Shown here one piece after another: positions 6,721 through 10,559 of a stretch of DNA of 18,550 nt. The notes beneath the pieces were generated by a model. It was not told the origin of the DNA, did not search any database, and worked only from the letters and a program-made list of their open reading frames with translations. The stretch is from a virus, in UHGV virus genome UHGV-1832352; one strand, 5' to 3'. Numbering within the stretch: position 1 is the first letter of the stretch; each line of letters opens with the position of its first letter. The translations under genes were made by a program, and so were the position numbers.

Positions 6721-7378
6721 GCGTTAGTTTCTCCACAACCAGAAGCAATCGACGCCACGACGCCCGGAGCTGCACACTCGCGGGCGTTACTCTTTTCCGG
6801 CGCACAAAAAACACGAAATAACAGTGTTAAATGCTCCTGCCACTTCGCCATTACTTGGTAGCTGTTCTCTTCGATTTGCTCACGCTCAGCCTGGTCAATA
6901 ACTCCATCAGCAGTTGCCTTGCGTAAGTACTGGGAATGCTTGCCAATCCATTCTATTGACTCCATCAGCCGCTGATTAATGTCACCATTGTCAATGTCAT
7001 CAATGACCACCAGCGGCACAAACACCCCATTACTACGACGGGCTATTGCATCTGTTACATGCCTGGTACCACTGGCATCCTGTAAAACCATGGCCCACTC
7101 AAGTGGAAAAATTTGATCCCCACCGCTACGCAGTCTGTTATGCAATTGATCTTTTGCTGGGGTGATATCATCAGATTTATACAAACCAAGAATTTCTGCT
7201 GCTTCCTCATAGCCATGAGGTAAATCAGCAATCGTTCTTCGTATTGCTGCCACCAGCCATGCTGGTTGTTTATCAACTTTCCATTCAGGTTCTTTACCCA
7301 CGGTTAATTCCTCATTTCTGTGGTTACGTTTACGCAGCTGAACCGCTAACTTTTGAATAGCACTCAGGTAATCCATCA
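6717..7378 (-). CDS. Hypothetical regulatory protein in the cII position (YdaT/CII-like placement)
   Basis: Long ORF immediately downstream of the cro-like gene. Start taken at MMDYLSAIQ (7378); the ORF-track start at 7412 would overlap the cro-like gene more. Family assignment is tentative. Confidence 0.55.
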
Positions 7379-7593
7379 TTTGGATTGGGGTAAATATCAG
7401 GACGCAGTTCATGAGGGGTCACGGACCAGTTTCCCAACTCACAAAGTTGTAAAACCCGTTCTGACGGGACTTGATTGTTAATTACCCAATTAGCGACGGA
7501 TTGAGTGGACTTAAAACCAAAGCGACGGGCTACTTCAGATAAAGATTTTCCCGCAGCCTTTACTGCTTTCTCTGTGTAGTTTTGAGATGACAT
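7330..7593 (-). CDS. Cro-like HTH regulator (YdaS/DUF1019-type)
   Basis: 87 aa; ...SEVARRFGFKSTQSVANWVINNQVPSERVLQLCELGNWSVTPHELRPDIY resembles YdaS-family Cro analogs; divergent from the CI-like gene; SD GAGGAG upstream. Confidence 0.8.
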   Translation of the reverse strand: MSSQNYTEKAVKAAGKSLSEVARRFGFKSTQSVANWVINNQVPSERVLQLCELGNWSVTPHELRPDIYPNPNDGLPECYSKVSGSAA

Positions 7594-7618: not shown

Positions 7619-7625
7619 GATGATG

Positions 7626-7661
7626 CTACTTAAAATAGCAAAATGCAACTACTTAAAATAG
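7626..7661. promoter_or_regulatory. Right operator region: two copies of CTACTTAAAATAG, 23 bp apart
   Basis: Identical 13-bp sites at 7626-7638 and 7649-7661 in the cro/cI divergent intergenic region; partial dyad (CTA...TAG); the same motif recurs at 9567-9602. Confidence 0.55.
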
Positions 7662-7699
7662 AAATGACTAGTGTATGTGATGTGAGTAATCTTCTACCT

Positions 7700-8404
7700 A
7701 TGGTAGAAGAACAGAAGTATCCAGATTTCGCCAAGAGACTAAACGAGCTAATGACAAACAAGGGAATTTCTGTCACCCAACTCAAAAGTCTTGTGGGCGT
7801 TACATATGAAATGGCGCGGCGATACACAATCGGCGCTGCGAAGCCTCGTGCCTCTGTCATGAATAAACTTGCATTGGCTCTGGGGGTATCAGCTTCATAT
7901 TTAGAATATGGTGTTGGCGAGAGAGAAGGATGTAAGGAAATGGCAAGCATCCCCAATCCAACGAAACCCGATGTATACAGGATAGAAGTTTTGGATCTTA
8001 GCGTTAGCGCAGGACCTGGGACCTATATGCTTTCAGACTATGTTGATGTGCTCTACGCCATTGAGTTCACAACAGAACATGCCCGTTCTCTTTTCGGCAA
8101 CCGTTCTCAGAATGATATTAAGGTTATGACTGTAAATGGCGATAGTATGTCCCCTACACTCGTTTCCGGAGACCGACTGTTTGTCGACATTTCTGTTCGT
8201 CACTTCCAGACTGATGGAGTTTACTCTTTCGTTTACGGTAAGACTTTTCATGTCAAACGTCTTCAAATGCAAGGTGACAAGCTAGCCGTTCTTTCGGATA
8301 ACCCCGCCTATGAGAAATGGTACATCGATGAAAAATCGCAGGATCAGCTTTATGTAATGGGCAAGGCGTTGATTCACGAATCTATAAAATACAACCGATT
8401 GTAA
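7700..8404 (+). CDS. CI-type prophage repressor (HTH_XRE plus S24 LexA-like autopeptidase domain)
   Basis: HTH (ISVTQLKSLVGVTYEMARRYT), Ser nucleophile context MTVNGDSMSPTL and Lys context HVKRLQ. Start uncertain (7643, 7664 or 7700); no SD upstream, consistent with a leaderless cI-like mRNA. Confidence 0.85.
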   Translation: MVEEQKYPDFAKRLNELMTNKGISVTQLKSLVGVTYEMARRYTIGAAKPRASVMNKLALALGVSASYLEYGVGEREGCKEMASIPNPTKPDVYRIEVLDLSVSAGPGTYMLSDYVDVLYAIEFTTEHARSLFGNRSQNDIKVMTVNGDSMSPTLVSGDRLFVDISVRHFQTDGVYSFVYGKTFHVKRLQMQGDKLAVLSDNPAYEKWYIDEKSQDQLYVMGKALIHESIKYNRL

Positions 8405-8448
8405 AACTCAATCCTTTCAGGATTAAAAGATCTAAAAGGATAATAATA

Positions 8449-8811
8449 ATGAAATCTGAACTATTTCATAGCGAAGCAAATTCAGAAATTATCACTGCAG
8501 ATGAGTTTATTGATTTCATAAACTCTTTCAAAAAGCCTTTAATTTGCCAAATTTGCGGAAATCAATCATGGAGTGTAGTCGGTACTCTAGAACTTGAAGT
8601 TGAAGACAATCAGCCAAAACATCACGTAATCGAAGTTCTCAGCTATGCCCAATACAAACCTGAAACTGATAGCGCTATAAATTATCCTGGTGGTATGCCG
8701 CTGTTTCGAATCACCTGTGATCACTGTGCACATGTACTTCTTTTTTCTTATAAAAAAGCTAGATCATTGATCCAAAAAAGAAAAAATGAAAAAGAAGAGG
8801 ATGGGAAATGA
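8449..8811 (+). CDS. Hypothetical small protein with zinc-ribbon-like Cys/His pairs (CQIC ... CDHCAH)
   Basis: 120 aa; SD AAAAGGA 8 nt upstream; AT-rich by eye; immediately downstream of the repressor gene on the same strand. Confidence 0.7.
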   Translation: MKSELFHSEANSEIITADEFIDFINSFKKPLICQICGNQSWSVVGTLELEVEDNQPKHHVIEVLSYAQYKPETDSAINYPGGMPLFRITCDHCAHVLLFSYKKARSLIQKRKNEKEEDGK

Positions 8812-9440
8812 CGCGACCTTATCTCAGAGCAGTACCAAACTGTGGATCTGGTATTGATAAGTGTGACCTTTACCCCAATGTTAAGAACAGGCTGCGCGTC
8901 GGTATAGAAGAAATGTATACTGATTTTATCGAATCCGCAGATGAAACTTACAAAACTGATGGGGGAAATAAAATGTCATCAGTTAGTCGAGAAGAAATTC
9001 AAGCACTTTTAGCTGCCAATAAAGCAGAAATGGAGTCCATTGCATCCTCTATTAGAGTTGAAATGGCTTTATCTCGCGAGAACACAAACGTTCAGCTAGC
9101 ATCTCTAAATTCAGCCATCAATTCTATCTCTTCGAAAATCGAAGGCAAAATGGACAGTGTTGACGGGGATGTGAAGGCCATCAATGGTAGATTCGAAGGT
9201 ATACAAGGCCAAATTACTGGAATAAATACAGCCATTAGTGGTATTCAATCTGGAATTTCTACCAGACTTGCTATTTTTGGAGTTATCATTGCGGTCATAG
9301 TTGCATTACCTAGCATAATTTCTGCTTTTAAAGATACTTCGCCAGTAGTTCAACCAGTTACACAACAACCAAGTGTTAAACATCTCAACCAAGAACCAAT
9401 TACTCCACAAGTATTACCTCCGCAGGGAAAAGCAAACTAA
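8808..9440 (+). CDS. Hypothetical coiled-coil protein with C-terminal transmembrane anchor
   Basis: ATGA overlap with the upstream gene at 8808-8811; an alternative internal start at ATG 8983 has a strong GGGGGA SD; heptad-like Ser/Ile/Gln-rich region, then hydrophobic LAIFGVIIAVIVALPSIISAF, then a Pro/Gln-rich tail; followed by an intrinsic terminator. Confidence 0.7.
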   Translation: MTRPYLRAVPNCGSGIDKCDLYPNVKNRLRVGIEEMYTDFIESADETYKTDGGNKMSSVSREEIQALLAANKAEMESIASSIRVEMALSRENTNVQLASLNSAINSISSKIEGKMDSVDGDVKAINGRFEGIQGQITGINTAISGIQSGISTRLAIFGVIIAVIVALPSIISAFKDTSPVVQPVTQQPSVKHLNQEPITPQVLPPQGKAN

Positions 9441-9464
9441 ACCGGCTTTATGCCGGTTTTTTTC
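9438..9464 (+). terminator. Intrinsic terminator after the repressor-linked cassette
   Basis: CCGGC-tttat-GCCGG hairpin followed by TTTTTTT directly after the stop codon at 9440. Confidence 0.75.
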
Positions 9465-9566
9465 TATACAAACGCCCCCCCTTTGTCTTGAATCACATCA
9501 CAACACATTTAAAAAACATATTAAATTCAAAGCATTAAACGCATCAACGCATACCAAACAAATTAT

Positions 9567-9602
9567 CTACTTTTAGTTGTTGATTTTTGCTACTTTTGGT
9601 AG
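9567..9602. promoter_or_regulatory. Left operator region: CTACTTTTAGTTG and CTACTTTTGGTAG, 23 bp apart
   Basis: Same CTACTT-N4-TAG-type motif and the same 23-bp phasing as the right operator pair; lies between the cassette terminator and the first early-left ORF. Confidence 0.5.
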
Positions 9603-9731
9603 CAGAATTATTTTAACGACAACGAACAGGCAGGACGCCCACGAAGTAGCCGCCTGGGGCATATGAAGTCCAGGATGATTCGTTGAGTCATGTTGTGCCA
9701 CCAGGCACTCATGTTAAAGCAGGTGTATGAA

Positions 9732-10170: not shown

Positions 10171-10423
10171 TTGATTTTCCTTTTATGTATACGGGCTTAA
10201 AAGGATACCACCGAGCCTGAAGTGGTGAAAAGACAGGCACATAACAGCTAAGTATTTTCAACCAGAGAGAATCCTTAGCGTTGTGGTGAATGCGGCTCAG
10301 CGCACGCGGGTTAAGGTTGAGGCTGACAGTCGACCTTCTGTGGATACCCACCCGTCTGGTGTGCAACCTTCGCCAGGCACCGGGAGGCACCCGGCACCAC
10401 AACTTTATGCTGTGTGTAGTCCT

Positions 10424-10559
10424 GGCGGTACCAGTTTGTACCCTTGCTTCCGGCTGGTACCGTCCTTTTTACAAAACAGAGAAGAGCATCACCGGACGAC
10501 GGGCTCATAACCCAATCCATCCGGGCGGCTGCCACCGCAGGTGTTCTTCTCTGTTTTGT
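10424..10559 (+). other. Structured GC-rich non-coding element: terminator-like hairpin plus a long stem-loop
   Basis: Hairpin 10426-10434/10454-10462 (CGGTACCAG/CTGGTACCG) followed by TTTTT at 10466-10470; then a 15-bp perfect inverted repeat ACAAAACAGAGAAGA (10471-10485) / TCTTCTCTGTTTTGT (10545-10559) enclosing about 59 nt. Confidence 0.4.

Follow-up and report, generated by a model that had tools for sequence, protein, structure and literature searches.

In bacteriophage lambda, the genes rexA and rexB lie on the cI strand between the repressor gene cI and the Timm/oL-pL region, and they encode one soluble and one inner-membrane protein. The Rex system excludes T4 rII with depolarisation of the membrane, wherein RexB is a polytopic channel that has a soluble activator. 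The same interval of a lambdoid prophage of Escherichia coli, contained in an 18,550-nucleotide stretch of the viral genome UHGV-1832352 (hereafter the window), carries two other genes. These are ORF1 (open reading frame 1, nucleotides 8449-8811), which encodes a soluble 120 amino acid protein with a predicted zinc ribbon, and ORF2 (8808-9440), which encodes a 210 amino acid membrane-anchored coiled-coil protein. The cassette is real, conserved and uncharacterised, and it is a repressor-linked accessory operon, or 'moron', of the prophage. Its family is widespread and presents a good candidate for a novel anti-phage system encoded by prophages. We assign a probability of roughly 40% to the reading that the cassette is a lysogen-expressed, Rex-like exclusion or abortive-infection module, in which an exchangeable cytosolic sensor is mounted on a conserved membrane effector. 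Such an anti-phage sensor/effector role is suggested by the position of the cassette and its modular architecture, and is plausible but unproven.

Position and organization of the cassette

ORF1 and ORF2 are located directly downstream of a gene for a CI-type repressor that combines a helix-turn-helix (HTH) with an S24 autopeptidase domain (7700-8404, + strand; Pfam Peptidase_S24, 1.9e-16, and HTH_3; phrog_4). All three genes share the same strand. A ribosome-binding site (AAGGA, 8436-8440) precedes ORF1, and the stop codon of ORF1 overlaps the start codon of ORF2 in the sequence ATGA at 8808-8811. Directly 3' of the ORF2 stop codon, in the position of lambda Timm, is an intrinsic terminator (9439-9467, + strand) composed of an 8-bp stem (9439-9459), 5 pairs of which are G-C, and a following T run. 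No site resembling a terminator was detected in the interval from cI to ORF1. The overlapping codons, this uninterrupted junction with cI and the conserved terminator after ORF2 support the reading of the cassette as an operon, which in the lysogen would most likely share a transcript with cI that ends at the terminator of the cassette.

Two operator pairs, OR at 7624-7664 and OL at 9566-9609, bracket the repressor gene and the cassette. The GC content is 35% for ORF1 and 40% for ORF2, compared with 43% for cI and 46% for the window. The initial annotation of the window had described the coupled reading frames, their bracketing by operators, the strong terminator and the AT-rich composition, and each of these elements is present. 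The cassette is 100% identical to sequence from E. coli 23CRST010, whose annotation lists both genes as hypothetical.

The equivalence of this location to the rexAB slot had been put forward by analogy with lambda. It is now an observation, because the isolated coliphages HK244 and HK542 carry the ORF2 family where lambda has rexAB. Both phages have genuine lambda cI, oR1-3, oL1-3, pRM, pL and Timm elements, and in these lambda-immunity phages the place of rexA-rexB is occupied by HK24405 (144 amino acids) and HK24404 (206 amino acids, an ORF2 homologue). The GenBank 'immunity region' records EF120457, EF120458 and JQ086373 annotate the HK24405/HK24404 and HK542_035 pair as hypothetical only. 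These hypothetical genes of HK244 and HK542 are the closest true relatives of the cassette. HK24404 and ORF2 both belong to phrog_5820 and are 78% identical in their core regions, and the order of repressor, partner gene, coupled membrane-protein gene and terminator is the same. The phages differ from the window in that the partner is a 144 amino acid 'ERISF' protein (phrog_5893), the N-terminal extension of the membrane protein is unrelated to that of ORF2, and the repressor and operators are those of lambda. A literature search, which did not extend to the 2007 paper that accompanied the HK244/HK542 deposition, found no study of any family member.

Family membership was assessed by scans of Pfam-A at E ≤ 1 for both proteins, with the XhlA profile followed down to E ≤ 10, and of NCBIfam, PADLOC-DB v2.0.0 and PHROG. 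Neither ORF1 nor ORF2 matches a RexA or RexB family in Pfam-A or PADLOC, and the cassette proteins have no Pfam match to SieB. This agrees with the earlier impression that neither protein belongs to these or to another characterised family. The profile searches, together with a fold comparison for ORF1, likewise found no homology to a characterised non-defence family. The cassette therefore shares with rexA-rexB its location, its strand and the pairing of one soluble with one inner-membrane protein. However, RexB crosses the membrane four times, whereas ORF2 is a single-pass, tail-anchored coiled coil with one hydrophobic segment. In addition, the soluble partner in the cassette is swappable among at least three unrelated classes, each with a matching adaptor. 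Tai (PMC11364771) and HepS (PMC13043305) were also considered and are unrelated to the cassette.

Distribution and genomic context

There are 40 clusters of ORF2 homologues and they are found across Enterobacterales. Homologues are present in 80 IMG/VR viral contigs, and scans of viral contigs were the productive source, with a scan of species-representative genomes giving only 3 loci. The gene order is nearly constant and consists of a repressor gene, a small gene of 87-165 codons and the ORF2 homologue, wherein the stop codon of the small gene abuts or overlaps the start of its neighbour. A same-strand repressor of the CI, c2 or RacR type lies no more than 2.5 kb upstream in 70 of the 81 non-duplicate loci, and in 55 of these 70 there is space only for the partner gene. 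A terminator follows the ORF2 stop codon in all five lineages examined, and one in this position is present in HK244, where it is the annotated Timm, and in Enterobacter L090, L010 and L048.

In four IMG/VR loci (L048, L051, L060 and L079) the gene 5' of the partner encodes a signal-peptide or lipoprotein-like N-terminus rather than a repressor, and no repressor was detected with the seeds used. These upstream genes indicate that the cassette can sit in a multi-gene accessory array. Two further loci, L044 (5074-6450) and L054, carry core-only ORF2 homologues that lack the N-terminal extension and follow larger genes, for proteins of 281 and 446 amino acids, in place of a small partner. Judging by their sequences, these upstream genes look antirepressor-like, of the Rha/KilAC type, which suggests that the ORF2 family has further architectures.

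The slot between cI and the promoter PL holds different contents in related prophages. In E. coli PF9285 (L093, 2776-3852) and strain 582 (L094, 5340-6425) it holds a single gene for a ParA-family ATPase of 358-361 amino acids, and against PADLOC this protein gives only a P-loop-level match, to the candidate system PDC-M28B. The cro/cI pair of these two prophages is 94% identical to that of the window, with the ORF1/ORF2 cassette replaced. In ST64B the slot is empty, with nothing between cI and the PL leader. Thus, the slot behaves as a cargo hot spot. According to a transcriptomic study, the interval from repressor to N is a common site for morons, and in one case, the cI-bstA defence operon, transcription starts from the cI promoter (PMC7067206).

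The nearly exclusive linkage of the cassette to repressor genes, which include S24 CI, P22-like c2 and RacR-like HTH-only types, could be taken to mean that it regulates the lysis-lysogeny switch or induction. A coiled-coil scaffold tethered to the membrane and its partner would then modulate the level or cleavage of the repressor, or host proteases such as FtsH/HflKC and ClpXP. There is some background for this idea, in that lambda RexB and cIII are reported to modulate host proteases. However, one and the same core is found together with repressors and immunity specificities that are unrelated, which argues against a repressor-specific regulatory partner. Moreover, the cassette is not needed for the switch, since phages of the same immunity lack it or hold different cargo in its place. 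We therefore regard a regulatory role as very unlikely.

An Enterobacter prophage (L090, 3841-4593, compared with 7643-8404 of the window) encodes a CI protein whose S24 domain is nearly identical to that of the window while its N-terminal DNA-binding domain is different. The mosaic joint within cI thus changes the immunity specificity and keeps the downstream cassette.

A conserved membrane-anchored coiled-coil protein

ORF2 (8808-9440, + strand) matches phrog_5820, a family of unknown function, at 6.8e-69 over profile positions 2-195 of 200. The long form consists of a variable N-terminal extension (residues 1-55), a coiled coil, a transmembrane (TM) helix and a Pro/Gln-rich tail. The coiled coil is predicted as a continuous heptad helix spanning residues 58-150 (8979-9257, + strand; AlphaFold2 helix 61-142). 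This region keeps a single heptad register, in which 70% of the a and d positions are hydrophobic, compared with 40% of positions overall. Its C-terminal end is formed by the Gly-rich heptads GIQGQIT-GINTAIS-GIQSGIS, and invariant residues in the family alignment include G127, G131, G138, N140, T141, A142, G145, Q147 and G149.

The TM helix is assigned to residues 153-174 (RLAIFGVIIAVIVALPSIISAF; 9264-9329, + strand) by the Kyte-Doolittle scale and by AlphaFold2, which places a helix at 149-174. Residues 154-172 are the sole hydrophobic segment of the protein, with a 19-residue Kyte-Doolittle maximum of 2.73. The remaining 36 residues (9330-9437, + strand) form a tail that contains 7 Pro and 6 Gln and the family motif QP(I/V)II, in which P188 is invariant and I191 nearly so. 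Since there is no signal peptide and Arg153 is on the N-terminal side of the TM helix, the protein is predicted to be tail-anchored, with its bulk in the cytoplasm and its tail in the periplasm. The heptad, hydropathy and AlphaFold2 analyses thus bear out the architecture of heptad region, single C-terminal TM helix and Pro/Gln tail that was initially described, while AlphaFold2 predicts the N-terminal 55 residues poorly.

Comparison with the Enterobacter homologue gives ratios of nonsynonymous to synonymous substitution rates (dN/dS) of 0.03 in the core, 0.19 in the extension (codons 1-55) and 0.35 in the tail. This purifying selection indicates that the long frame is truly coding.

A membrane protein of this kind might exclude superinfecting phages without any abortive response. 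T4 Imm, P22 SieA and HK97 gp15 block DNA entry by incoming phages, and many exclusion proteins are small inner-membrane proteins. By this account the periplasmic QP(I/V)II tail of ORF2 would block the entry of phage DNA, and ORF1 would act as a chaperone or stabiliser. The single-pass topology, the conserved short periplasmic motif (P188, I191) and the location in a slot that is taken to be lysogen-expressed are compatible with such a role. However, about 150 of the 210 residues are predicted to be cytoplasmic and include the most conserved part of the protein, whereas the tail is its least constrained part. Nor is it obvious what part an exchangeable cytosolic partner and its matched adaptor in the cytosol, as described below, would play in a periplasmic entry block. 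These considerations make this type of exclusion an unlikely explanation.

The initial annotation also compared ORF2 with XhlA, the lysis-module protein of Bacillus prophage PBSX. The likeness holds at the level of layout, because ORF2 has a cytoplasmic coiled coil followed by a C-terminal TM helix, but neither ORF2 nor its core matches the XhlA profile (PF10779) at E ≤ 10. ORF2 is also more than twice as long and is found in an immunity region rather than a lysis cassette. There is one related locus, L102, in which a zinc-ribbon protein of the ORF1 family is coupled to a 97 amino acid protein that does match XhlA (55 of 67 profile positions, E 1.1e-5), although its score of 25.9 bits is short of the gathering cut-off of 34.7.

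For the juxtamembrane and TM region of ORF2, the best profile matches are to SmhB (E 0.0065; residues 151-210, 58 profile positions), AhlB (E 0.27) and MakE (E 1.2e-4), of the ClyA-family tripartite alpha-pore-forming toxins. In these matches the ORF2 segment GINTAISGIQSGIS...LAIFGVIIAV aligns with the helix running into the hydrophobic head, which inserts into the membrane. However, the MakE match, the only one that NCBIfam gave, scores 21.2 bits against a curated cut-off of 360, and the alignments cover about 60-120 residues and carry a compositional bias flag. Moreover, ORF2 is a small, cytoplasm-facing phage protein, whereas the toxins are secreted and have about 360 amino acids. This is a resemblance and not membership of the toxin family, and it is weakly suggestive of a membrane activity for ORF2.

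Exchangeable partners and matched adaptors

ORF1 (8449-8811, + strand) is the variable partner in the window. It matches phrog_4293, a family of unknown function, at 1.7e-33 over profile positions 3-123 of 124. The family is tiny, with 12 proteins recovered by an exhaustive HMMER pass over 1.84 billion representatives. Paired Cys/His motifs had been noted in ORF1, namely CQIC (C33/C36) and CDHC (C90/C93). Among 15 family members, the only invariant residues are these four Cys and the His is not conserved, such that ORF1 is better described as a Cys4 zinc ribbon. The AlphaFold2 model is confident (predicted local distance difference test, pLDDT, 84; predicted template modelling score, pTM, 0.68) and depicts seven beta strands lying between the two knuckles, with a helix at either terminus of the protein. 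With two family-conserved CxxC knuckles on a beta-hairpin scaffold, the modelled protein would conform to the generic definition of a zinc ribbon, and it is predicted to bind metal. A Foldseek search of the Protein Data Bank (PDB) and BFVD with this model returned no fold neighbour at E < 0.1. The Rpp21-type zinc ribbon of RNase P was considered as a relative of ORF1, but its E value of 0.13 in a PDB sequence search with the ORF1 profile is noise. The dN/dS of ORF1 relative to its Enterobacter homologue is 0.06, such that ORF1 is likewise under purifying selection and a real gene.

Near the 3' end of ORF1 is an A-tract, AAAAAAGAAAAAA (8779-8791), that carries 1- or 2-nucleotide deletions in two near-identical copies of the prophage (L005 and L008). 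These deletions shift the frame of the last ~10 codons, such that the ORF1 product has 135 or 112 amino acids and the coupling to ORF2 through ATGA is lost. Either sequencing errors in the homopolymer or genuine slippage could account for them.

The gene upstream of ORF2 is not conserved across the family, and clustering places its products in at least three unrelated groups. Zinc-ribbon partners are rare and are found in the window, in L048, L051, L060 and L068, and in the Rac-like loci L095 and L097. The commonest class, with 36 loci that include HK244 and HK542, is the beta-rich 'ERISF' class of 143-162 amino acids (phrog_5893). There are also several classes of about 100 amino acids, and hhalign links these weakly among themselves (classes C, D and F, ~66% probability). 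By the same method, the zinc-ribbon (A) and ERISF (B) classes are unrelated to each other and to the ~100 amino acid classes.

The class of the ~55-residue N-terminal extension of ORF2 tracks the class of the partner, and the core does not change. Among the closest lineages, the coiled-coil and TM core is 78-93% identical. Compared with the window, L097 has identities of 90% for the core, 30% for the partner and 15% for the extension. HK542 retains 78% identity in the core, and its partner and extension are both unrelated. The same arrangement is observed from the side of the partner. The genes of two distant zinc-ribbon relatives (P0053 and P0051, 27-28% identity) also come directly after a repressor gene, and each overlaps a downstream gene whose product is a coiled-coil protein that crosses the membrane once. 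These membrane proteins are not ORF2 homologues, and one of them is XhlA-like below threshold while the other has its TM helix before the coiled coil. Because the association holds from both sides, the recurring unit appears to be a small soluble protein coupled to a membrane coiled-coil protein with a matched N-terminal extension, of which either half is exchangeable. ORF2 extensions of both the zinc-ribbon and ERISF classes, although otherwise unrelated, share a short motif close to the N-terminus (residues 5-10 in the window, 8820-8837), with examples such as YLRAVP, HLQAVD, RLKVVGG, SLRVVAG and NVVAFQ. This motif may be a short docking strand.

The partner and adaptor turn over fast while the core evolves slowly, as would be expected of a conflict system with changing targets. 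This pattern bears also on the idea that the cassette is a moron that affects host fitness, whether through envelope properties, stress tolerance or virulence, and has no connection with phages. Lambda bor and lom are morons of this kind. An AT-rich accessory insert with its own terminator would fit this explanation, and lysogen-expressed morons include non-defence functions (PMC7067206). However, there is nothing surface-exposed or enzyme-like in the cassette proteins, and a constant core whose partner and adaptor are rapidly exchanged would be expected of a conflict system rather than of a housekeeping envelope function. We regard a fitness role of this sort as very unlikely, on a par with a role in the lysogeny switch.

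Perhaps the pair instead resembles a toxin-antitoxin system or a lysis accessory that has no anti-phage role. ORF2 would then be a membrane toxin or holin-like protein and ORF1 its neutraliser, serving in addiction or in the tuning of lysis or induction. A small soluble gene followed by a coupled membrane-protein gene, with overlapping stop and start codons, is reminiscent of type II toxin-antitoxin operons, and cognate-specific partner/adaptor pairs fit the specificity of antitoxins. The membrane protein of the L102 variant resembles XhlA, which belongs to the lysis module of PBSX. There is precedent for a toxin-antitoxin system in a prophage immunity region (PMC8630535). However, neither protein has homology to known type II toxin-antitoxin families in Pfam or NCBIfam. 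The cassette also lies downstream of cI and upstream of PL, whereas the lysis module is ~8 kb away in the identical genome. We judge this alternative unlikely, and it overlaps with an abortive-infection role, because many toxin-antitoxin systems act as abortive-infection systems.

A conserved internal start site in ORF2

An internal initiation site is located at the boundary between the extension and the core of ORF2. It consists of a Shine-Dalgarno (SD) sequence GGGGGA (8961-8966) and an in-frame ATG (8973-8975, Met56), both on the + strand, with a predicted anti-SD duplex of -8.4 kcal/mol. An internal start with a strong SD had been reported at 8983, where the sequence is TTA, and so the site exists but begins 10 nucleotides earlier. 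An SD-like sequence and a properly spaced ATG or GTG are found at this boundary in most ORF2 lineages. An anti-SD duplex of -7 kcal/mol or stronger accompanies 13 of the 29 distinct boundary ATG cases, compared with 4.4% of all ATGs in the same loci. Depending on the lineage, the motif is encoded by codons for Glu-Glu, Gly-Gly, Gln-Glu-Val, Leu-Glu-Glu or Asp-Gly-Gly. The variety of amino acids that correspond to the motif argues for selection at the RNA level. Three homologues (P0017, P0030 and L044) begin at the boundary site, and in L102 gene callers chose the internal start.

The conserved SD and start codon therefore predict two products from ORF2, which would be the full-length protein and a core-only form of 155 amino acids (8973-9440). 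Two in-frame products from one membrane-protein gene, by means of an internal SD and start codon, are also characteristic of SieB-Esc of P22 and lambda and of the lambda S107/S105 holins. In both of these cases the second product modulates the first. Unlike those pairs, the predicted ORF2 forms differ by a whole partner-specific extension of ~55 residues and not by a few residues. In lambda, the pLit promoter is a separate way to make extra RexB, and the predicted internal start of ORF2 recalls this separate supply of the membrane component.

A possible mechanism and its appraisal

If the cassette is a Rex-like exclusion or abortive-infection module, ORF2 would be its constant effector. The protein would be tail-anchored in the inner membrane and would oligomerise through its ~90-residue cytoplasmic coiled coil, which would be followed by the Gly-rich amphipathic juxtamembrane segment and the short periplasmic tail. 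Its N-terminal ~55 residues would serve as an adaptor that fits the partner encoded upstream. This partner, which is ORF1 in the window, would be the exchangeable specificity or sensor subunit that docks on this adaptor, and the docked partner might either hold ORF2 inactive or trigger it when a superinfecting phage is detected. The adaptor-less isoform from the internal start could co-assemble through the coiled coil and set the threshold for activation, perhaps as a brake or as a source of extra pore subunits. Once activated, the module would damage the inner membrane, possibly by permeabilisation.

Several observations weigh against this reading. PADLOC-DB gives no match for ORF1, gives coiled-coil noise only for ORF2 (PbeC, E 0.0014, 15 bits) and no match for five alternative partner classes. 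The similarities to pore-forming toxins are far below curated cut-offs and may be compositional, and outside residues 61-110 the AlphaFold2 monomer model of ORF2, which in essence is a single long helix, is of low confidence. The co-variation of partner and adaptor could reflect only the physical linkage of adjacent DNA rather than binding. SD-like motifs often encode Glu-Glu or Gly-Gly, and thus the boundary site could be conserved for protein reasons. The cassette is also rare. Of 5,426 complete E. coli genomes, 9 contain the version in the window and 65 match the ORF2 core at the DNA level. Finally, no expression or phenotype data on the cassette genes were found.

If the cassette does exclude phages, it would represent a new compact two-protein defence family in the rexAB slot, composed of proteins that have no known relatives. 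Its design would be unusual, wherein a sensor gene and the adaptor-coding 5' end of the effector gene are exchanged as a unit while the membrane effector itself stays constant, and the ratio of isoforms is set by a conserved internal start. Many genes downstream of prophage repressors in Enterobacterales are annotated as 'hypothetical', and the cassette would account for some of them. A bolder and more doubtful proposal, which we offer tentatively, is that the family constitutes a 'plug-and-play' prophage immune platform. Placed in the rexAB slot, a constant two-isoform membrane effector with swapped sensor and adaptor cassettes would give lambda-like, P22-like and Rac-like prophages throughout Enterobacterales a re-targetable form of abortive infection. 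Because HK542 is isolated and sequenced, has lambda immunity and carries the ORF2 family in place of rexAB, isogenic comparison with lambda and simple deletions are feasible.

Other features of the immunity region

Divergent from cI is a gene for a cro-like early repressor of 87 amino acids (7330-7593, - strand; Pfam YdaS_toxin/HTH, E 4.6e-11; phrog_35, transcriptional repressor). The OR pair between these genes comprises two copies of CTACTTAAAATAG(C/A)A with 23-nucleotide spacing (direct repeat D3), and it contains the palindrome TGCTA-N7-TAGCA. The OL pair (direct repeats D1 and D2) has the same spacing of 23 nucleotides, and the two pairs form an inverted repeat (I1) around the cassette region. 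The start of cI at 7700 follows the RefSeq annotation in the identical E. coli genome, and the longest reading frame starts at 7643. PL and the early-left operon begin at the OL pair, downstream of which there are yfdP/Q/R-like early-left genes.

Further downstream, positions 10250-10472 (+ strand) give a sub-threshold Rfam match to the gammaproteobacterial small RNA STnc100 that spans the full length of the model (41.2 bits compared with a gathering score of 47, E 8.9e-7). Just 3' of OL/PL, within 9619-9700, there is a stretch of about 66-80 nucleotides that has no Rfam match and whose predicted fold is no better than those of shuffled sequences (z -0.96). Nevertheless, more than 1,500 E. coli genomes, as well as phages SfV, SfII, SfIV, ST64B, phiNP and YeP1-3, carry this stretch at 88-100% identity despite differing flanking genes. 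It is probably a conserved PL-leader element, such as a nut-like site or a small RNA.

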